This document shows positions 6,921-52,057 of a DNA stretch of 53,918 bases, one piece after another. The DNA is taken from positions 2,090 to 56,007 of the forward strand of contig JBBDTK010000018.1 in the NCBI GenBank assembly GCA_040904405.1, written 5' to 3'. A program made the translations under genes and the position numbers. The notes under the pieces are model-generated. The model made no database searches, was not told the origin of the DNA, and was given only the letters and a program-made list of their open reading frames with translations. Position 1 is the first letter of the stretch. Each line of letters begins with the position of its first letter. This DNA comes from Solirubrobacterales bacterium. Lineage in GTDB: Bacteria > Actinomycetota > Thermoleophilia > Solirubrobacterales > 70-9.

Positions 6921-7005
6921 TGCAGCCGAAGCTAACAGTGAAATCCGGCCAAAAACCGCACTGCACCGAATTGGCACACTAATTTTTCACTTTCGCTTGT
7001 AAGCC

Positions 7006-7021
7006 GTCACAAGTATGTGAC
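7006..7021. promoter_or_regulatory. Palindrome GTCACA-AGTA-TGTGAC in the AT-rich spacer between the rmlC stop and the tRNA-like gene
   Basis: Perfect 6-bp arms with a 4-nt spacer, 8 nt after the rmlC TAA stop. It sits in the only AT-rich stretch (6921-7028) of this region. It could be a weak terminator hairpin or an operator. Confidence 0.3.
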
Positions 7022-7028
7022 TTTTGAC

Positions 7029-7577
7029 TTAAAAGGGAAGAGTCTCGGCGACCTCGGCCAGCCTCGGGGCCTGCTTGTCGCGCTCAGAGAGGAGGGGTTC
7101 CTCGACCGGCCACTCGACGCCGACGTCGGAGTCGTCCCAGGCGATGCCGGCCTCGGTCGCCGGGTCGTAGGCGCTGGAGAGCAGGTAGGCGACGTCGGCG
7201 ACGTCGCTGAGCACCGCGAAGCCGTGGCCGAAGCCGGCCGGGACGAAGAGCTGGCGGTGGCGCTCGTCGTCGAGCTCATGGCCCTCCCACTGGCCGTAGG
7301 TGGGCGAGTCGCGCCGCAGATCGACGGCGACGTCGAAGACCCGCCCGCGCGGGCAGCGGACCAGCTTCGCCTGGCCCGGCTCGGTCTGGAAGTGCAGCCC
7401 GCGCAGCGTCCCCCTCGCCGAGCGCGAGTGGTTGTGCTGGACGAACTCGACCTCGACCCCGAGCTCGGCCCAGGAGTCGCGGCGGTAGGTCTCGACCATG
7501 AAACCGCGCTCGTCGCCGTGCACGGCCGGCTCGAGCAGGACGACGCCGTCGAGCTTCGTCGGCAGCCGCTTCGGCAT
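7029..7577 (-). CDS. rmlC: dTDP-4-dehydrorhamnose 3,5-epimerase
   Basis: ATG at 7577 overlaps the rmlB stop (ATGA). Sequence is MPKRLPTKLDGVVLLEP…HGDERGFMVETY…RGTLRGLHFQ…QAKLVRCPRGRVFDVAVDLR…FVPAGFGHGF. Confidence 0.9.
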   Translation of the reverse strand: MPKRLPTKLDGVVLLEPAVHGDERGFMVETYRRDSWAELGVEVEFVQHNHSRSARGTLRGLHFQTEPGQAKLVRCPRGRVFDVAVDLRRDSPTYGQWEGHELDDERHRQLFVPAGFGHGFAVLSDVADVAYLLSSAYDPATEAGIAWDDSDVGVEWPVEEPLLSERDKQAPRLAEVAETLPF

Positions 7578-33681: not shown

Positions 33682-35397
33682 CTACCTCAGCCTGACCACG
33701 CGCACGGCGCGCCCGCCGGGGATCGCGATGACCAGCTTGGCGGCCAGGCCCGGGCGTTCGGCGGCCAGCTTGCGGCCACGGGCGCCGAGCGGGACGCGGA
33801 AGGCATGGGAGCGACCGCCGACGAGGCGGAACTGCCGCCGGGCGATCGCCCGGGTGACCGCCCTGCTGCGGAACCGCCGCCGGCCCTGGCGCCGCACCGC
33901 GAAGCGCTCCCGGATGCGGGCGCGGACGAGGATCTGCCCCGGGCACTGGGTGCCCTGCGGCCACAGGCAGTGGACGTTGACCCGGACCGAGTTGCCGGCC
34001 TGACGGATGCCGGCGAGCGCCAGCGGCACCGGCACGCCGATCGAGCGGCAGCCGAGCAGGCGGTCGGCGCCGCGGCCGATGTTGAGCGCGTAGACGCAGA
34101 CCCGCTGCTTGCCGCTGCCGACGATCGGGAAGCTGGCGTCGAAGCCCGGCGCCGCCGCCCGCGGATAGCTGGCCAGCAGGTCGGTGCGCGGCCCGCCGGC
34201 GACCGGCCCGAGCTCGTAGCGACCGCCGCCGCGCCCCTTGGCGCCGGCGGCCCGGGCGCGGATCGCGAGCGGCTTGCGCGGCGCGTTCGGGTCGAAGGCC
34301 CAGCCGGAGACCCTGACCTGCCCCGGCAGCGGCGACTCGACGATCTCCAACGCCCCCTTGGGGTCGTCAGGCGAGGGCGCCGAGGAGCCGGCGGTCGCGC
34401 CTTCGACGTAGTTGTTGTCGATGTTGATCGTCACCCCGCCCCAGGTCTCGTCGTGACCGCCGTGGTACTGGTGGATGCGCTGGTGCTGGCTCCAGGCGCT
34501 GGCGGGGACGAAGGGGTCGGCGGTGTTCTTCTGCCCGTTCCAGTTGGCGGTCCAGATGTCGTCGGGCTGCGGGTAGGGGGTGCCGATCCGGCTGACCAGG
34601 TCGCGGATCCCCGAGGCGCTGCTGCTGTAGACGCCGGAGTCGTAGCCGAGCGCGTGCAGGCGGGTGGTCCAGGCGGCGAGGAAGGCGAGCGTCGCGCTGG
34701 TCGCGCTGGAGGTGCGCGTGTAGCTCTCCATGTCGTTGTAGATCGGGCTGCCGGGGCCGATCCCGATCGCCTTCGCCTGCGCAACCGCGTCGTTGGCCGC
34801 GGCCGTGCCCTGCAGCGTCGCGCTGGAGGGGCTGAGCTTGGCGCAGGAGGTGCAGCTGGAGGTCGGCGCCTGCAGGCCGACGTAGGTGGGGATCAGGTGC
34901 CAGCCGGCGGCGACGTGTTCGGCGACCCACTTCGCGGTCAGGCTCGGCTGCGAGCAGGCGCGGTTGAGCCCGCCGATGTAGACGCCGACGGCGCGGTAGG
35001 GCGAGGACCTCCAGGCGGTCATCGAGCGCCGCGAGGGCGCCGTGCAGGCGTCGAAGCCGAGCCCGGTGTACTGCGAGGCGGCCGAGATTCGCGCCGGCCG
35101 GACGCGGCTCGCCTGCGCGGCGGCGCGCGAGGCGCGGGCGGCGGCCCCGGGGTCGACCAGGATCGCCCGCCGGCGGCCGATCGCCTCGGCCGGGCAGCGC
35201 TGCGCGGCGCGCGGCCGTCCCAGGTAGACCGCCTTGCGATCCAGCCGCACGCAGGTCCGCGGCCGCTGGTCGAGCCTGATCACCGGCCAGCCCGCGGGCA
35301 CGGCGACATGCTCGCCCTGGAACTGGACGGTTTTCGCGCCGGCGCTCGCGGGCAGAACCGTGGCCAGCGCCAGCACACATATGGCCAGGCGCCGCAT
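33682..35397 (-). CDS. Secreted DUF1906 (Rv2525c-like glycoside-hydrolase-like) domain protein with C-terminal beta-rich extension
   Basis: ATG 35397 is preceded by GGGGGAGAG. The signal peptide is MRRLAICVLALATVLPASAGA. The core is YTGLGFDACTAPS…AVGVYIGG…WHLIPTYVG…YNDMESY…GYDSGVYSS…IWTANWNG…. Confidence 0.8.
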   Translation of the reverse strand: MRRLAICVLALATVLPASAGAKTVQFQGEHVAVPAGWPVIRLDQRPRTCVRLDRKAVYLGRPRAAQRCPAEAIGRRRAILVDPGAAARASRAAAQASRVRPARISAASQYTGLGFDACTAPSRRSMTAWRSSPYRAVGVYIGGLNRACSQPSLTAKWVAEHVAAGWHLIPTYVGLQAPTSSCTSCAKLSPSSATLQGTAAANDAVAQAKAIGIGPGSPIYNDMESYTRTSSATSATLAFLAAWTTRLHALGYDSGVYSSSASGIRDLVSRIGTPYPQPDDIWTANWNGQKNTADPFVPASAWSQHQRIHQYHGGHDETWGGVTINIDNNYVEGATAGSSAPSPDDPKGALEIVESPLPGQVRVSGWAFDPNAPRKPLAIRARAAGAKGRGGGRYELGPVAGGPRTDLLASYPRAAAPGFDASFPIVGSGKQRVCVYALNIGRGADRLLGCRSIGVPVPLALAGIRQAGNSVRVNVHCLWPQGTQCPGQILVRARIRERFAVRRQGRRRFRSRAVTRAIARRQFRLVGGRSHAFRVPLGARGRKLAAERPGLAAKLVIAIPGGRAVRVVRLR

Positions 35398-35471
35398 CTC
35401 TCCCCCCAACCATGCCAGCCGCCAAACGTTTCGGCCTCCATCCAGCTACCGCCGCAAGAGATTTGCCGGGA

Positions 35472-35586
35472 CGGGGCCGTCCCGGTAGGGGTGGAACGTC
35501 TTGTACTTTTTTTGCGAAACCGTTCTCGGACGGCTGACAACTGTCTTCAAAAAAAGCTAAGTGGAACCCCTACCGGGACGGCCCCG
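35472..35586. repeat. 115-bp hairpin repeat, copy 1 (21-bp perfect terminal inverted repeat, inner T7/A7 stem)
   Basis: CGGGGCCGTCCCGGTAGGGGT…CTTTTTTTG…CAAAAAAAG…ACCCCTACCGGGACGGCCCCG. It has the same length and orientation as 38929-39043. The right arm supplies the last five codons and the TAG stop of the acylase gene. Confidence 0.85.
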
Positions 35587-37954
35587 GCACAAGGTCCAAC
35601 TCCAGCCAGGGGCCCTCGCCGGCCATCGGCTGCGTGCGGCCGTCGAGCCAGTCGGCCTGCAGGTCGTCGTAGTGGGGGCTGGCCGGGTGGCCGGACTGGC
35701 CGGTGAACATCTGCCAGCGCGAGCGCTCGGGATCGGTCGGGTCGGCGACCATGCGCCAGCTCGGCGCCCAGACGGCCTTGTAGGGGTCGTTGGGGTCGTA
35801 GGCGATCTGGCTCACGGTCTCCTGCGCGCCGCCCGCCCTGAGGCGGCGGTTGAGCAGCCTGCGCAGCAGCGGATTGGCCTCGCCGAGCGGGTGCGGGAAC
35901 TCCATCTCATGCACGTGTCCCCAGCGCCAGGCCTCGGGATCGGGGCCGAAGCGCTCGCCGAGATCGTCGAGCGCGCCGGCCAGAGCCTCGAGCACGAGCT
36001 CATCCCAGGGCCGGCCGATCAGCTCCTCGTCGCCCTCCGCCCAGAGGCCCATCAGGTGCGAGTGCCAGCGCCAGGGCGAGGTGACGTGCGGCGTGAAGCC
36101 GTTGTCTGCGCGGTCGAGCCAGCGCTCGCAGAGGTCGCGGTCGCCGATCGCCGCGCGGGCGACCTCGCGCGCCAACCGCAGCAGGAAAGCCTGGTAGATC
36201 GTGCCCGCGATCGAGTCGGGGTCGAGCCGGCCGTCCCAGCTGCGCAGCCGCTCCAGCGCGCTCAGCTCGCGCTGCCCCTGCGGCTTCAGCCGGCCGAGCC
36301 GCCGCGCCGCCTCCAGCCCGGGCAGCGAGAGGTTGTCGGACTGCATCGCCTCGAAGCCCTCGATGTCGTGCTCGCCGCCGGCCCGCAGCAGTTCCTCGAT
36401 CCGGCGCGCCCGGAAGCCGTCCAGCCACTCGCTGGTTATGTGGTGCGGGTACTCGTCGCCGACGATCCGGTTGTTGGCGGTGATCAGGTAGCCGCAGGCG
36501 GGGTCGACGACCTCCGGCAGCTCGGCGTAGGGCACCGTCCCCTCCCACTCGAACTCGCCCGTCCAGCCGGGCTTCGGCAGGTCCGGACAGCCGCCCTTGC
36601 GACGCGGCAGGCGGCCGATCAGCTTGTAGCCGATCGAGCCGTGGCGGTCGCCCCAGACGAGGTTGCTGGCCGGCGCCGTGTGGCCCTCCAGGGCTGCCAC
36701 CAGCTGCGACCCGGAGCGGATCCCGTGCAGGTCGAACATCCCCTTGAAGGCGGTCGGCTCGTCGAGCGCGGTCCAGCGCAGGGCGAGCGGCTCCGCCTCG
36801 TCGGCGCCGAGCGCATCGTTGACCAGCGGGCCGTGGTGGGTGAGCCGGACGTCCAGCAGCTCGGGCGCGTCGCGGCCCTTGACCGCGATTTCCTCGCGGA
36901 CCAGCTCCAGCGGCCGCCAATCGCCCTCGAAGAGGTAGCGCCCGTCATCGACCCGCTCGACGAAGAGATCCTGGACGTCGGCCATCACGTTGGTGAAGGT
37001 CCAGCAGACGTCGTTGTTCTGGCCCATGTAGACGCCGGGCATCCCCGGCAGCGAGGCGCCGCGGACGAAGCGATCGCCGAGCGTGAGGCCGACCTGGTAC
37101 CAGATGCCGGGCATGCTCGGCGGCAGGTGCGGGTCGCCGGCGACCAGCGGCGAGCCGGTCGCGCTGAGCGCGCCGCTGACCGCCCAGTTGTTGGAGCCGC
37201 TGGCCTCGGCGGCCATCCCGATCGAGCGCCGCACGGCGTCGATCTGCTCGGCCAGCCCGAGTCCGTCGCCGCTCCACGGTTCGTGGGTCACGATCGGGTT
37301 GTCGGCCGGATAGCCGGGGTCGAGGCGGGCGGCCAGGTCGGGGCCGAGGGCCCGGGTCATGTCGGAGCGCAGCAGCTCCTTCTCCCAGTTGGTCGAGAGG
37401 CCGAAGGCGAGCAACTTGCCGAGGCCGAGGATGTCGGCCGGCCGCCAGGGGGCGAAATCGAGCCGCAGCAGCTGCATCTCGAAGGGCGGCGCCTGGGCGC
37501 TCCCGGCCGCCGCGTTGACGCCGGCGCAGAAGCGCTCCAGCAGGGCGAGCAGCTCGGGGTCGAGTTCGGCCGCCTCGCGCTCGGCCGTGCGCCGCATGCC
37601 CAGCGTCCGCATCAGGCGATCGACCGGAAGCCCCTCCGGGCCGGCGAACTCGGAGACCCGACCGGAGAGGACGCGACGGTAGAAGTCCATCTGCCAGAGC
37701 CGGTCCTGACCGTGGCAGAAGCCCTCGGCGAACCAGAGGTCGGTCGCCTCCTCGACCTCGACGTGGGGCACCCCCCAGCGGTCGCGCCGCACCCGCACCG
37801 GCCCCTCCAGACCGTTGAGCTCGATCGTCCCCTTCGTTCGCGGCAGCGGTCGCCGGGCGAGGAAGTGCCAGGCGACGGCGGTCGCCGCCGCGGCCAGGCC
37901 GGCTCCCGCCGCTCCGGCGAACAGACCCGCACGCGCTGCGCTTCTCCCACTCAT
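35570..37954 (-). CDS. Penicillin acylase family (Ntn-hydrolase, peptidase S45) protein
   Basis: Sequence is WGVPHVEVEE…WFAEGFCHGQDRLWQMD…, with SNNWAV as the processing-site Ser. GDPHL is present. The N-terminus has a hydrophobic anchor or signal. Confidence 0.9.
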   Translation of the reverse strand: MSGRSAARAGLFAGAAGAGLAAAATAVAWHFLARRPLPRTKGTIELNGLEGPVRVRRDRWGVPHVEVEEATDLWFAEGFCHGQDRLWQMDFYRRVLSGRVSEFAGPEGLPVDRLMRTLGMRRTAEREAAELDPELLALLERFCAGVNAAAGSAQAPPFEMQLLRLDFAPWRPADILGLGKLLAFGLSTNWEKELLRSDMTRALGPDLAARLDPGYPADNPIVTHEPWSGDGLGLAEQIDAVRRSIGMAAEASGSNNWAVSGALSATGSPLVAGDPHLPPSMPGIWYQVGLTLGDRFVRGASLPGMPGVYMGQNNDVCWTFTNVMADVQDLFVERVDDGRYLFEGDWRPLELVREEIAVKGRDAPELLDVRLTHHGPLVNDALGADEAEPLALRWTALDEPTAFKGMFDLHGIRSGSQLVAALEGHTAPASNLVWGDRHGSIGYKLIGRLPRRKGGCPDLPKPGWTGEFEWEGTVPYAELPEVVDPACGYLITANNRIVGDEYPHHITSEWLDGFRARRIEELLRAGGEHDIEGFEAMQSDNLSLPGLEAARRLGRLKPQGQRELSALERLRSWDGRLDPDSIAGTIYQAFLLRLAREVARAAIGDRDLCERWLDRADNGFTPHVTSPWRWHSHLMGLWAEGDEELIGRPWDELVLEALAGALDDLGERFGPDPEAWRWGHVHEMEFPHPLGEANPLLRRLLNRRLRAGGAQETVSQIAYDPNDPYKAVWAPSWRMVADPTDPERSRWQMFTGQSGHPASPHYDDLQADWLDGRTQPMAGEGPWLELDLVPGPSR

Positions 37955-38072: not shown

Positions 38073-38912
38073 CTATTCAGTGATCCCGCCGGGCAGGCGG
38101 TTTTCGGCCGCGAGCTTCTGCAGGTGCGCCTCCATCACCAGGGCGGCGGCCGGTCGCACCTCCGCCGGAGCGTCGTCCCAGACCTCGGCGAGCAGCGCCC
38201 CCCGTGAGCGCTCGCCGCGGTCGAGGGCGGCGAGCAGGCGGCGCTCGCGCATTTCGCGATGCTCGACGTACTCGGCCAGCTTCGCCGCCGGGTCGATGAT
38301 CCAGGGGCCATGGCCGGGACAGATCAGCTCGGGGGCCTCAGCCTGGACGGCGCGGAGCGAGTCCATGTAGGCGGCGAGCGAGCCACCGTCGGGCGGGACG
38401 AAGGTCGAGCCCTCGCCAAGCACCAGGTCCCCCGCAAAGCAGACCCCGTCGTCGGTGAACAGGCAGACGTGGTCCGCAGCATGACCCGGCGTAGCCAACG
38501 CCCGCAACCCGTGGCGCCCCTCGCCCACGGGCAGCCCCCCGGATCCGTGCTCCGACCAATGCTGGAGGTCGCCTCCACGCTCCTCGTCACCCGCAGGCAG
38601 GACGACCGGCGGGCGGACCCCGCCCCTTGCCTCGACCGCAGTCGCCAGCGGCTCGGCCCCGTCCGCATGGTCGCCGTGGCTGTGCGTCAGCAGCACCACC
38701 CCGATCCCACCGCGTCCCTCGGCAGCTTCCCGCACGGCCCCCAGGTGCCCGGCGTCGTCCGGCCCCGGATCGATCACCACACAGGGATCCGACCCATACA
38801 AATAGGTATTCGTCCCATCCAAGGTCATCGGCCCCGGGTTCGGCGCCACGAACCTCAGAATCTCCGCGTGCCCGGGCGCCGCGGTCACATCATCTCCGCC
38901 AGCCTGCGTCAC
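38073..38912 (-). CDS. MBL-fold metallo-hydrolase
   Basis: GTG start. Motifs are TNTYLYG…VVIDPG and LLTHSHGDHADG (HxHxDH), with ATPGHAADH and PGHG downstream. The C-terminal region is helical. Confidence 0.85.
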   Translation of the reverse strand: MTQAGGDDVTAAPGHAEILRFVAPNPGPMTLDGTNTYLYGSDPCVVIDPGPDDAGHLGAVREAAEGRGGIGVVLLTHSHGDHADGAEPLATAVEARGGVRPPVVLPAGDEERGGDLQHWSEHGSGGLPVGEGRHGLRALATPGHAADHVCLFTDDGVCFAGDLVLGEGSTFVPPDGGSLAAYMDSLRAVQAEAPELICPGHGPWIIDPAAKLAEYVEHREMRERRLLAALDRGERSRGALLAEVWDDAPAEVRPAAALVMEAHLQKLAAENRLPGGITE

Positions 38913-38928
38913 GTCGCCGGGCTCTCGA

Positions 38929-39043
38929 TGGGCACGTCCCGGTAGGGGTGGAGCGTCTTGTACTTTTTTTGCGACGACATCCTCGGACGACCACCAACTG
39001 TCTTCAAAAAAAGTTAAGCGGAACCCCTACCGGGACGTGCCCA
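38929..39043. repeat. 115-bp hairpin repeat, copy 2
   Basis: TGGGCACGTCCCGGTAGGGGT…CTTTTTTTG…CAAAAAAAG…ACCCCTACCGGGACGTGCCCA. It lies between the MBL start (38912) and the PafBC-like stop (39056). Confidence 0.85.
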
Positions 39044-39055
39044 GGGGCCGAGTCC

Positions 39056-41116
39056 TCACGCAACGCTCGCTGCGACTTCCGCGGCAATAGCCTCGCGCGC
39101 CTCCGCCGGCTCCAGCACGACCAGGTCGCCGGCGCCGCGCAGCACCTCGCGCACCAGCCACGACGTGCCCGCATAGGGAAGCTCGACCACGACCGCGCCG
39201 TCGGCCAGCTCCTCGACCACGGTGCGCTCCTCGCGCAGCCAGCGGGCGCGCTCGGGCGAGACCCAGACGCGGGCGACCTGCGCGGTCGGCACCTCGCCGT
39301 CGCTCATCCAGCCCTCGACCCCGGCCAGCTCTTCGACCTCGGGCCGCGGCTCGTAGGCCTCCGCGGTCGCCGTCGCCTCCTTGACCCGGTCCAGCTTGAA
39401 GTGGCGGATTCCCTCTTTGGTCAGGTCGAAGCACTCGACGTACCAGCCCTCGCGCCCGTTCTCGAGCCGGTAGGGCTCGACCCGGCGCTTGGTGAACTGG
39501 TCCTCGTTCTCCTTGTAGTACTGGATCTCCAGCACGCGGCGGGCGGCGATCGCATCGTTGACCGCCCGCGCCACCTCGACGTCGCCACCGCCGCCCGAGG
39601 CGATCTCCAGGCCCTCGTGCGAGGGATCGTGGCCGAGCGCCTTGACGATCTTCTCCCGGGCGCTCTGCAGGCCGCCCTGCGGCAGGTGGTCGCCGAAGAG
39701 GTCGATCGCCGCCACCAGCGCCTTCGCCTCCAGCGGCAGCAGCCGCGCCGGGCGGGCGAAGTTGTCGCCGTAGGGCTCGGAGTCGACCGAGATCTCGTCG
39801 CCGAGGACCTCGGCGTAGAGCACGTAGGTGCCGCCGCCGAAGTTGACCACGTTGAGCAGGTCGATGTCCTCCTGCAGCTCCTCCGCGGTCAGCTCGAGCC
39901 GCTGGCGCAGATCGGTGACGCTGAGCCGCTCGCCTTTCTTGGCCGAGTCGATCAGCATGCCGGCGAGGGTGACCAGGCGGGCGAAGCGCTCGGGCCGGAT
40001 CGCCGCCTCGCCGCGGCCGTTGGAGCGCGTGCGCGGCGGCGGCTCGCGCAGCGGCCGGTCGACGACCTCGGCCGGCTCGAAGTCGCTCTGGTGGCGATCG
40101 TGGAGCAGGTCGAGCCGTTCGCGCGCTTCGCTGCTCAGCTCCTCGGGCTCGAGCACGTCGGCGTGTTGGCGCCAGCGCAGGACCCAGGCGATCAGCTCGC
40201 GCGGCGAAGCGTAGTCAGTCTCGAAGACCGAGCCCTTGCCGGGGGCGTCGTCGGCCTTGCGCGCCGGCCGCAGCTCGCCGTACTCGCCGAAGTCGCGCTC
40301 GATCAGCCAGGCGATCCGGTCGCGGACGAAGATCTTCGCGGTGCCGCGGATCTCGCCCAGCTGCCAGTCGGCGCGCTGACCGTAGTCGCGGCGGTCGAAG
40401 TCCTGCGGCGGCGAGAAGTCGTGCTCGGCCTTCGACCCGTAGCCGACCTTACCCTGGATCCGCGAGAGGCGGAAGACCCGCACCGCATCGCGCTCGTGCG
40501 AGTGGCCGATCAGGTAGAACTGGCCGGAGCGGAAGACCAGGTGGTAGGGGTCGACCTTGCGCTTCTCGGTCTCGTCGCGCTCCATCGTGTAATAGGTGAA
40601 GTCGATCGTCTTGCGGCGCGATATCGCGGTCTCGATCTTGGAGAGGCGCTGCGAGAGGTCGCGGCCGCCGGCGGAGGCGGTCATCGCCAGCTCGACCGGG
40701 GCGCGCTCGCCTTCGCTGATCGGGTTGGGATGTCCCCAGGCGACCTGCTGCAGCGCCAGCCGCAGCGGCTCGGCGTAGGCGAAGCCGCCGTCGGTGAGCA
40801 GCGAGAGCGCCGTGCTCAGCGAGGCCAGCTCGTCGTCGGCGAACTCGATCGGGTCGAGGTAGAAGTTCTCCGGCGGCAGCGAGTAGAGCTCGGCCTCGAA
40901 GAACCCCTCGCCCGGTTTCTCCACCCCGAGCTCGATGCCGAGGCTCTCCAGCTCGGCCCGGTCGGCGTAGAAGCGGCGCGCGAAGGCGTCGTCGTTCATG
41001 TCGCTGTAGCCCTCCACCTCGCGCTTGATCTCCAGCGCCGAGACCGGTCTGCCCTGCGCCATCAGGAAGGAGATCAGCGAGAGCTGGCGGATCAGCTTCT
41101 CGGTGTCCTTTGCCAC
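39056..41116 (-). CDS. Fused PafB-PafC-like transcriptional regulator (two HTH-WYL-WCX modules in one polypeptide)
   Basis: The N-terminus is VAKDTEKLIRQLSLISFLMAQGRPVSALEI (HTH). The first WYL-type core is TIDFTYYTMERDETEKRKVDPYHLVFRSGQFYLIGH. The second module is LEIQYYKENEDQFTKRRVEPYRLENGREGWYVECF. The ORF opens at 41170, and GTG 41116 is preferred as the start. Confidence 0.82.
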   Translation of the reverse strand: MAKDTEKLIRQLSLISFLMAQGRPVSALEIKREVEGYSDMNDDAFARRFYADRAELESLGIELGVEKPGEGFFEAELYSLPPENFYLDPIEFADDELASLSTALSLLTDGGFAYAEPLRLALQQVAWGHPNPISEGERAPVELAMTASAGGRDLSQRLSKIETAISRRKTIDFTYYTMERDETEKRKVDPYHLVFRSGQFYLIGHSHERDAVRVFRLSRIQGKVGYGSKAEHDFSPPQDFDRRDYGQRADWQLGEIRGTAKIFVRDRIAWLIERDFGEYGELRPARKADDAPGKGSVFETDYASPRELIAWVLRWRQHADVLEPEELSSEARERLDLLHDRHQSDFEPAEVVDRPLREPPPRTRSNGRGEAAIRPERFARLVTLAGMLIDSAKKGERLSVTDLRQRLELTAEELQEDIDLLNVVNFGGGTYVLYAEVLGDEISVDSEPYGDNFARPARLLPLEAKALVAAIDLFGDHLPQGGLQSAREKIVKALGHDPSHEGLEIASGGGGDVEVARAVNDAIAARRVLEIQYYKENEDQFTKRRVEPYRLENGREGWYVECFDLTKEGIRHFKLDRVKEATATAEAYEPRPEVEELAGVEGWMSDGEVPTAQVARVWVSPERARWLREERTVVEELADGAVVVELPYAGTSWLVREVLRGAGDLVVLEPAEAREAIAAEVAASVA

Positions 41117-41197
41117 GAGCCCAGAATAGTGAGGGCGGGGCGGCGGGCTCCCCGCCCGGACCGCCCTCAAGCCGCACTTTGCGGCCCGGCTGGAGGC

Positions 41198-44903: not shown

Positions 44904-45109
44904 GCAGGGGCCAATCGGACGAGCCGATCCAACTTGTTCCCCACGACCCGTCTTGGCCTGACAGATTCGACCAGGAGGCGGCCGTCCTGAAGCCCCGAAA
45001 CCTCGGGTCCAGCTTCAGGGGATCGGCTGCCAGCTTGGAGCGGCGTCTCCTATTGCTCCGAATCCAGCCGAGGGCGCAATCTGGGAGACAATGCGAGAAA
45101 CCGGGCTGA
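44900..45109 (+). pseudogene. 5' fragment of a grpB-like gene (duplicate of the start of 46616-47131)
   Basis: ATGA-coupled to the GNAT stop. Residues DEPIQLVPHDPSWPDRFDQEAAVL match the GrpB N-terminus at 46616. After 44991 the reading frame becomes unrelated and lies antisense to the PD40 gene. Confidence 0.6.
44917..44991 (+). repeat. 75-bp direct repeat, copy A (74/75 identical to 46627-46701)
   Basis: GGACGAGCCGATCC(A/G)ACTTGTTCCCCACGACCCGTCTTGGCCTGACAGATTCGACCAGGAGGCGGCCGTCCTGAA, aligned by eye. Confidence 0.9.
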
Positions 45110-46617: not shown

Positions 46618-47131
46618 GCCCCGCCTGGACGAGCCGATCCGACTTGTTCCCCACGACCCGTCTTGGCCTGACAGATTCGACCAGGAGGCGGCCGTCCTGA
46701 ATGCGGCGATAGGGGGTTGGGCTACGGGTGGGATTCACCACGTCGGCAGCACCGCAGTCCCCGGTCTCGACGCCAAGCCGATCATCGACATCCTCGTCGG
46801 CATCGATGATCTCGGAGCCTCCCGAGCCTGCTTCGACTCCCTGGCAAAGCTCGACTATCGCTACGCGCCGTACCGGCCCGAGGAGATGCACTGGTTCTGC
46901 AAGCCGCACCCGAGCCGGCGAACCCATCACCTGCATCTCGTCCCGACCGATTCGGAGCGATTCCGCGAGGAGTTGGCCTTCCGCGACCGGCTGCGCTCTG
47001 ACCGGACGGCCGACGACGAATACGCGGTGCTGAAGCACGACCTGGCGCAGCGGTTCGCCGACGACCGCGAGGCCTACACCGAGGCCAAGGCGGAGTTCAT
47101 CCGCCGCGTCCTCGCGAACGGATCCGGATAG
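46616..47131 (+). CDS. grpB: GrpB (UPF0157) family protein
   Basis: Sequence is LVPHDPSWPDRFDQEAAVL…HHVGSTAVPGLDAKPIIDILVGI…HHLHLVP…. Confidence 0.88.
   Translation: MPRLDEPIRLVPHDPSWPDRFDQEAAVLNAAIGGWATGGIHHVGSTAVPGLDAKPIIDILVGIDDLGASRACFDSLAKLDYRYAPYRPEEMHWFCKPHPSRRTHHLHLVPTDSERFREELAFRDRLRSDRTADDEYAVLKHDLAQRFADDREAYTEAKAEFIRRVLANGSG
46627..46701 (+). repeat. 75-bp direct repeat, copy B
   Basis: See 44917-44991. The two copies are spaced 1710 bp apart. Confidence 0.9.
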
Positions 47132-51984: not shown

Positions 51985-52057
51985 TGGCGAGGGTGGGAAT
52001 CGAACCCACGACACCACGATTTTCAGTCGTGTGCTCTACCAACTGAGCTACCTCGCC
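51985..52057 (-). tRNA. tRNA-Phe (anticodon GAA), CCA not encoded
   Basis: Minus strand reads GGCGAGG-TA-GCTC-AGTTGGTA-GAGC-A-CACGA-CTGAAAA-TCGTG-GTGTC-GTGGG-TTCGATT-CCCAC-CCTCGCC-A, a canonical 7/5 cloverleaf. Confidence 0.95.

Follow-up and report, generated by a model that had tools for sequence, protein, structure and literature searches.

Why should two intergenic stretches of one genome differ in sequence and still pair perfectly with themselves? The window, by which we mean the whole 53.9-kb stretch of DNA that was analysed (69.9% GC), was predicted to hold two 115-bp copies of a structured repeat in the same orientation, at 35472-35586 and 38929-39043, and re-measurement gave the same coordinates. 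The copies are about 85% identical to each other, and each carries the perfect 21-bp terminal inverted repeat that had been described (CGGGGCCGTCCCGGTAGGGGT...ACCCCTACCGGGACGGCCCCG in copy 1 and TGGGCACGTCCCGGTAGGGGT...ACCCCTACCGGGACGTGCCCA in copy 2). Also as described, the three left-arm differences between the copies (C/T, G/C and C/A) are each accompanied by the complementary change in the right arm, and the inner stem CTTTTTTTG/CAAAAAAAG is unchanged. Long A/T runs had been called unusual here, and indeed the window has just four runs of 6 or more bases, all within the two copies (0.19 runs of 7 or more bases would be expected). The 14-mer of the core occurs four times exactly in the window; with up to 2 mismatches allowed the count is five, where 0.32 would be expected from that search. 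As RNA, both copies fold on either strand into one long hairpin of about -65 kcal/mol (z about -8); as DNA, they reach about -38 kcal/mol on either strand (z -6.7 to -8.6), and the strands fold equally well. The parts of the element and the genes around it are listed below; the plus polarity is defined by the arm bearing the GTC bulge being the left one, and R1 is a covariance model of the family.

35472..35586, plus strand: copy 1 of the 115-bp hairpin element, between the 3' end of the amidase gene and the start of the Rv2525c-like gene; R1 gives 118 bits on the plus strand and 60.5 on the minus strand
38929..39043, plus strand: copy 2, same polarity, between the stop of the PafBC-like gene (39056) and the start of the MBL-fold gene (38912); R1 gives 121.4 bits on the plus strand and 57.5 on the minus strand
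35472..35481, unstranded: left arm of the variable outer stem of copy 1, pairing with 35577-35586 (copy 2: 38929-38938 with 39034-39043)
35482..35492, unstranded: conserved stem core CCGGTAGGGGT of copy 1, pairing with ACCCCTACCGG at 35566-35576 (copy 2: 38939-38949 with 39023-39033)
35493..35504, plus strand: asymmetric interior of the left arm of copy 1
35493-35495, plus strand: GGA internal loop of copy 1, opposite GGA at 35563-35565
35496-35497, plus strand: 2-bp helix of copy 1, pairing with 35561-35562
35498-35500, plus strand: one-sided GTC bulge of copy 1
35501-35502, plus strand: TT of copy 1, pairing with AA at 35559-35560
35503-35504, plus strand: unpaired GT of copy 1
35505..35513, unstranded: A/T-rich inner stem of copy 1, pairing with 35549-35557 (copy 2: 38962-38970 with 39006-39014)
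35514..35548, plus strand: variable apex of copy 1, in which the GNCRGCC motif of alignment A2 reads CGGACGGCT (copy 2: 38971-39005)
39056-41170, minus strand: PafBC-like WYL/WCX gene, first in transcription order and followed by copy 2
38073-38912, minus strand: MBL-fold gene, after copy 2 in transcription order
35570-37954, minus strand: penicillin amidase gene, after the MBL-fold gene and followed by copy 1
35570..35572, minus strand: TAG stop of the penicillin amidase gene, inside the right core of copy 1
33682-35409, minus strand: Rv2525c-like gene, after copy 1 and last in transcription order

All window genes near the copies lie on the minus strand. The stop of the amidase gene is the TAG of the core CCGGTAGGGGT, and its last codons (…PGPSR*) are element sequence; in relatives without the element, the amidase ends in …LVPA* at a native TGA. 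The element rewrites gene ends, supplying both the last codons and the stop of the amidase in this genome.

The copies belong to a large family, as a search for further copies, one of the checks suggested with the original prediction, made clear. A pattern that held nothing but the inner 11 bp of each arm constant, run against one genome per species, gave at least 116 stretches. Among the matches listed, 114 stretches from 77 assemblies come from Solirubrobacterales/Thermoleophilia; the assemblies bear the label Solirubrobacterales, Thermoleophilia or Conexibacteraceae, apart from a few given simply as Actinomycetes or Actinomycetota. The other two of the 116 are gammaproteobacterial and have the 11-mer in common but different interiors. 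These two hairpin repeats (L051:5356-5461 from a Steroidobacter MAG and L104:673-766 from a Gammaproteobacteria MAG) have exact CCGGTAGGGGT/ACCCCTACCGG arms and complementary flanks around interiors unrelated to the family, and their 11-mer arms could be due to chance or to a common recognition word. An nhmmer search added about a dozen full-length copies in 0.95 Mb of locus DNA, and R1 found 17 copies in 0.85 Mb chosen without regard to the element; extrapolation from these 0.95 and 0.85 Mb suggests tens of copies per 2.5–3 Mb genome. A search of a plasmid collection gave no match to the element, and our literature search found no account of repeat families in Solirubrobacterales/Thermoleophilia, which are abundant in soil and seen almost solely through metagenomes. 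On balance, we consider this to be probably a new family of dispersed hairpin repeats of about 115 bp, specific to Solirubrobacterales/Thermoleophilia and of the MITE/REPIN kind. Truncated or tandem partial copies abut full elements in several places (L005:7313-7343, L014:5016-5042, L062:97-107, L011:5722-5748), and pairs of elements lie 100–180 bp apart in L045, L069 and L070, which suggests insertion beside or into existing copies, or local duplication.

Pairing is what these copies have in common. Alignment A2 comprises 115 oriented copies, and the invariance of the core in it is a product of the search pattern. Family-wide, the outer stem is Watson-Crick paired in 87–98% of copies at positions 1–9 and in 69% at position 10, while complementarity in the flanks from position 11 outward is 26–43%, about the chance level, so the stem ends sharply at 21 bp. 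Covariation was observed in all 10 outer stem pairs of A2; pair 7/121, for instance, is GC in 35 copies, CG in 32, UA in 32, AU in 11 and broken in 4. Considering the whole structure of the 115 copies, 97.6% of stem cells are paired, and 453 cells are altered on both sides as against 121 ± 15 in shuffles, none of which (0/500) reached 453. Sliding the partner by 1–3 columns as a control lowered pairing to 35–58%. More copies could have turned up arm mismatches without compensation; instead they extend the compensatory pattern seen between the window copies to the family. The pattern scan aside, 24 copies were found without the core pattern, and in these the core is altered on both arms together (GTAG becomes GCAG in L182, L129 and L059, GATAG in L174 and GGGGAAGGGGT in L069/L070). 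Conservation of the stem tapers gradually outward from the core, with the consensus C-T-N-A-G-G-G-C-C-N-R-T-C beside it, symmetric on both flanks. The conserved property is pairing, strictly Watson-Crick, rather than sequence.

Inside the stem, the structure is asymmetric. From base to tip, the element consists of the 21-bp stem, a symmetric GGA/GGA internal loop (present in 66/115 copies), 2 bp, a one-sided GTC bulge (114/115 copies), another 2 bp, a 2x1 loop, an A/T stem of at least 9 bp and an apex of about 45 nt. The RNAalifold register for the interior, which needs two G·U pairs, was superseded by one that is all Watson-Crick, in which pair 25-103 is AT in 60 copies and GC in 55, with 0 unpaired. 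The interior asymmetry gives the element a polarity, with R1 scores that differ between the strands (about 110 bits versus about 50). The centre had been described as loop-like, which calls for a small correction: it is not simply a loop, as the A/T stem continues through more covarying pairs (its top two are CG 80, UA 16, GC 11 and GC 84, UA 15, CG 10), and the apex itself holds the semi-conserved motif GNCRGCC.

We then considered where the copies lie, using gene calls from a GC3-based method for 116 oriented copies. Of these, 48 are between convergent genes, 40 between tandem genes and 15 between apparently divergent ones. For genes reading toward an element, the stop overlaps the element edge 46 times, and 28 times it is the core TAG. 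Some sites are occupied in many species: among the matches listed, the hemA|hemC junction carries the element in 11 species and the ku|ligD junction in 5, with the orientation constant at each site. With moderate confidence, gene 3' ends and operon junctions are where copies either land or survive, and there they are able to replace the native stop.

Comparison with relatives indicated that the element comes and goes at these sites. A metagenome scan with the amidase protein yielded 80 syntenic loci (77–89% identity). The element is present at the amidase 3' site in 2/80 relatives (L129 and L182) and at the PafBC|MBL junction in 13/66 relatives compared, in the latter always in the orientation seen in the window. 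A clean empty PafBC|MBL junction reads GCGTGACCCAGG, where the PafBC TGA overlaps the MBL GTG and there is no palindrome; since the empty junction lacks a palindrome, the outer arms came along with the element, which here splits a pair of genes that overlap stop to start and are coupled in relatives. In the filled junctions of L168, L174 and L141, CGTGACC flanks arms of about 12 bp on both sides, and this could be a 7-bp target-site duplication or a stop/start arrangement that was there before. Other junctions look like deletion footprints: L126 equals L142 minus the element interior, L117 retains both CGTGACC motifs and L127 retains 9 nt of the left arm. At copy 1, an imperfect 7-bp direct repeat spans the element (CCGGGAC at 35466-35472 and CCGGCAC at 35584-35590), possibly a decayed target-site duplication, and the left edge of this copy overlaps a local palindrome, CCGGGAC-GGGGCC-GTCCCGG (window 35466-35485). 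Fixed-offset and flexible tests for target-site duplications on the 116 oriented copies gave no excess over shuffled controls. The arms themselves are inverted rather than direct, and together with these tests this agrees with the earlier view that they are not target-site duplications. The same view had taken the hairpin pattern as an argument against simple transposon scars. We do not set the hairpin against mobile DNA, as the element is a dispersed repeat that is carried by some close relatives and absent from others, with footprints.

The history of individual sites is less simple. In a tree built from the flanking genes, the filled alleles lie scattered between clean junctions and ones that hold other hairpins, and the flanks of filled loci are 85–88% identical to one another, all about equally diverged; with this scatter and equal divergence, repeated loss and gain, allelic exchange and divergence in situ are not separable. 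Loops at different sites of the same genome are more alike (similarity 0.546, n=52) than loops that occupy one site across genomes (0.442) or pairs drawn at random (0.446; p = 7e-7, Mann-Whitney), which indicates continuing copying or conversion within a genome. The outer arms do not follow the loops, as in L023 and L098, two copies of the same genome whose loops are 85% identical and whose arms are GCGGAGTCCC and AGAGCCGATC, and a simple master-copy model fails to explain this.

Several other palindromes occupy the same two sites. At the amidase 3' end of relatives without the element, a hairpin of about 60 bp lies about 10–90 nt past the stop (L117, L119, L124, L125, L127, L139 and L160; compare window 35410-35470). 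Its arms read ACGTGCCGGT…ACCGGCACGT, and the loop between them varies around ATATGG. A third hairpin family, GAACTGCATCAACTT(loop)AAGTTGATGCAGTTC, was observed at this gene end in L141, L152, L153, L154, L161, L165 and L176. The PafBC|MBL junction carries a hairpin of about 40 bp, for example TTGGCGAGTTAGTCGC-ATATGT-GCGACTAACTCGCCAA, whose stem differs between genomes by matched changes (L122, L133, L135, L145, L146, L175, L184, L191 and L195/L196; compare window 38913-39055), and about 2/3 of relatives have a hairpin of some kind there. It seems that several families of palindromic repeats contest the same sites at gene ends.

How does the element compare with known repeats? REPINs are hairpins of about 100 nt made of two invariant inverted blocks and a spacer, with compensatory changes being common (PMC3116915), and are mobilised in Pseudomonas and Enterobacteria by RAYT/TnpA-REP Y1 transposases (PMC3116915, PMC8266576). 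The substrate of RAYTs is the folded single-stranded REP; they require GTAG and a bulge in the stem, and cleave at a CT next to the hairpin (PMC8266576). Our element resembles REPINs in being an intergenic hairpin of about 100 nt with two conserved inverted blocks, a less conserved spacer, compensated changes, a conserved stem bulge and a GTAG in the conserved block, as well as in its tens to hundreds of dispersed copies, long vertical persistence and lack of a clear target-site duplication. However, its halves are not small palindromic REPs, the arms having no internal palindrome, and its GTAG is neither unpaired nor invariant, as it lies within the 21-bp duplex and, in copies not selected on the core sequence, can be replaced by GCAG, GATAG or GAAG on both arms. 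It also differs from REPINs in the extra variable, covarying 10-bp stem outside the conserved block, and in that no RAYT was found in the 1.74 Mb examined here. REP-type repeats more generally are units of 20–40 bp with an unpaired tag and, as reported, frequent G·T pairing in their stems; they lie at most 20 bp from ORF 3' ends and often donate a TAG stop (PMC3733652). The GTAG/CGTC REP families and their head-to-head dimers (Di Nocera et al, 2013, PMC3733652) likewise lie between convergent or unidirectional ORFs near 3' ends; their TAG is often the stop, their dimers can form one large stem-loop and several families occur per genome. Our element, in contrast, is a single 115-bp hairpin that has the tag-like words (GTAG, CGTC) inside its structure and no G·T excess. 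The host clade, of actinobacterial lineage, is absent from the taxa named in the abstract of that 2013 REP survey, and 'Actinobacteria' does not appear in its text (PMC3733652).

In size (100–150 bp), in long inverted ends that fold as a hairpin, in intergenic position with co-transcription with neighbours, in presence in some strains and absence from others, and in the ability to alter gene ends, the element is also like a Correia or ERIC element. MITEs with long terminal inverted repeats such as the Correia elements of Neisseria and the ERIC/IRU of enterobacteria have a defined target-site duplication (TA) and sequence-conserved termini, whereas the terminal 10 bp of our element vary freely yet stay paired, and we found neither a consistent duplication nor a partner IS. 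It is a small non-coding unit with terminal inverted repeats (115 bp, 21-bp termini, no ORF), dispersed in at least 116 stretches and present or absent among relatives (13/66 and 2/80). Integron attC sites, which are conserved in structure over sequence, are recognised as folded single strands and derive their polarity from one-sided extrahelical bases; the element is similar in size, in its place at ORF 3' ends and in structure-based polarity, and this likeness concerns the working mode only. Its consensus is without R''/R' boxes (RYYYAAC/GTTRRRY), and its copies form no integrase-linked arrays but are scattered through housekeeping operons in which gene order does not depend on the presence of the element. 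As it lacks two features of REP/REPINs and fits the description of a MITE save for a proven target-site duplication or partner IS, we filed it as a new family under no named one. The original prediction had not recognised it as a known MITE, and no named family does fit, although it behaves like a MITE or REPIN. We class the element as a small hairpin-forming mobile intergenic repeat, an already known phenomenon in a new clade.

Searches for a partner enzyme covered 1.74 Mb. An autonomous partner from a known IS/MITE family would have overturned the original prediction; the 1.74 Mb yielded neither an IS with matching ends nor arm pairs set far apart. The genes beside elements include no recurrent family except orthologous housekeeping genes, and no recurring transposase or RAYT. 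The RAYT signature (HUH plus Y-x3-NP) had no match in six-frame translations of the 1.74 Mb, which is a weak test. Since the halves of the element are not REPs and its GTAG is not invariant, a link to RAYTs is unproven. An IS1595-family IS was considered as a partner and rejected, as its ends are unrelated to the element. It lies at L008:1380-2600 between two oppositely oriented elements, encodes a 309-aa transposase (PF12762 E = 3e-28, PF12760) and has a perfect 23-bp palindrome as one of its own ends (1551-1600).

Whether the hairpin acts as DNA or as RNA can be approached from its imperfect pairs. Among 1610 variable-pair cells, 1495 are Watson-Crick, 23 are G·T, 34 are A·C and 58 are other; read in transcript sense at tandem genes, there are 9 G·U as against 15 A·C. 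If selection acted on RNA from a single strand, G·U should be much better tolerated than A·C, so the lack of a G·U excess points to a constraint on DNA or on both strands. The orientation of the element relative to transcription at tandem sites is not tied (26 versus 14). Scans of both window copies with terminator and promoter consensus models gave no terminator-like or promoter-like call and no U tract; the flanks read CTNAG and lack the T runs that an intrinsic terminator, a short GC-rich hairpin with a U tract right after it, would need. The original prediction knew of no RNA family for the repeat, and Rfam 15 agreed: at the gathering threshold there was no match to the element in the window, where a tRNA gene (51985-52057, minus strand) was the sole gathering-level match, and the best permissive match on the element was mir-969 (25 bits versus a 61-bit threshold, E = 0.089). 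Considering the absence of a G·U excess, the free orientation and the lack of a U tract or Rfam match, the constraint falls on DNA or on both strands equally. We infer that the importance of the hairpin lies in its folded DNA form, be it single-stranded or a cruciform, or in both strands alike; it may have an additional role in RNA, including a two-sided one at convergent genes. Of the selection on an RNA or cruciform hairpin that had been proposed, the hairpin and its compensation thus stand for the family as a whole, and the RNA option is without specific support.

Our preferred explanation is that the element is a non-autonomous repeat, in effect one long imperfect palindrome, that would spread to, or survive at, gene ends, with copies being lost again by deletion and some sites staying occupied across many species. 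Its propagation or retention would most likely depend on a protein that reads the folded form, in the manner of REPINs and RAYTs, and intrastrand template-switch correction could help to keep the arms matched. Points against this are that neither a transposase nor a RAYT recurs beside the elements in the 1.74 Mb examined, that the 116 oriented copies show no general target-site duplication, that the 7-bp duplication at the PafBC|MBL junction may predate the element, that the halves are not REPs, and that copies of the same genome differ in their arms. An unlikely alternative is a structured RNA that the host selects at mRNA 3' ends, where it would act as a terminator lacking a U tract, as protection from exonucleases or as a site for RNase III, and the repeat would spread or persist through this punctuation of transcripts. 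Such action was proposed for REP-type repeats (PMC3733652), and it would suit a very stable RNA hairpin (-65 kcal/mol, z about -8) that sits at convergent and tandem gene 3' ends with stop codons at its foot. The presence of some hairpin at the PafBC|MBL junction in about 2/3 of relatives is also in its favour, and two-sided transcription, expected at most convergent sites, could alone enforce pairing that is Watson-Crick only. However, G·U is not in excess even at transcript-oriented tandem genes, orientation is not fixed relative to transcription though the interior is strongly polar, and U tract, terminator-like call and Rfam match are all missing. Moreover, the element breaks up a junction at which relatives have translational coupling (GTGA in GCGTGACCC), and so looks tolerated rather than designed.

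A purely mutational account deserves the same scrutiny. The correction of quasipalindromes by template switching is well established as a source of mutation in bacteria, and the element could be an ordinary DDE-type MITE with a functionless hairpin whose arms are matched merely because replication switches templates at quasipalindromes. We judge this quite improbable. The few half-changed pairs and a G·T count about equal to A·C are what strand-symmetric correction would yield, and the direct duplication of the 7-bp CGTGACC at the PafBC|MBL junction (L168, L174, L141) and the imperfect 7-bp repeat at window copy 1 would be in keeping with DDE transposition; yet unchecked correction should erase asymmetries, while the GTC bulge survives in 114/115 copies and the GGA/GGA and 2x1 loops persist too, and it should lengthen the palindrome outward, while complementarity halts at 21 bp. 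Nor did the 116 oriented copies show a general target-site duplication, or the 1.74 Mb an IS with matching ends. Very improbable, finally, is that a 95-bp element inserts in the middle of short palindromes already in place, terminator stems for instance, with the outer arms being the differing targets. The T. roseum GTAG-23 REP family, reported inside small GC-rich target palindromes (PMC3733652), is a precedent, and the outer arms of our element do vary greatly between copies. This was rejected, as it is contradicted by empty sites without a palindrome (GCGTGACCCAGG at the PafBC|MBL junction and …GTGCCGGCCTGAGCG… at the amidase site) and by the scarcity of arm-like palindromes, of which 0.95 Mb held 5 short ones as against about 130 elements. 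The fixed stem length of 21 bp and the gradual fading of conservation from the core, with no sharp break, are further points against it.

Returning to a repeat whose folded form is read by a protein, a more specific version combines the strict Watson-Crick covariation, the GTC bulge, the GGA/GGA loop and GNCRGCC into a folded single-stranded DNA site recognised by a dedicated hairpin-specific enzyme or binding protein in Thermoleophilia. This is tentative, and we consider it rather unlikely; if true, the element would be a counterpart of REPIN/RAYT or attC/IntI in an actinobacterial lineage, with a different architecture. The outer 10 bp might be rewritten at each move, which would explain unrelated paired arms beside near-identical loops. 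The element offers a starting point toward finding the protein that would read the hairpin. With more than 100 copies, some positions that show all four Watson-Crick pairs, and hardly any intermediates, the family is an unusually clean natural dataset. It lends itself to the question of how palindromes in bacteria stay perfect, be it by selection on folded DNA or by template-switch correction. In genomes, the element marks operon junctions of fast turnover, and it is a likely cause of assembly breaks.

Two further stretches of the window were noted. The intergenic region at 6940-7040 is AT-rich for a 70% GC genome and has AAAAA and TTTTT runs; the pair at 6951/6983 was considered as a further hairpin and rejected, being an AT-rich spacer only. 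A 75-nt direct repeat, 99% identical between 44917-44991 and 46627-46701 (1.7 kb apart), probably represents the 5' ends of two tandem paralogous genes.
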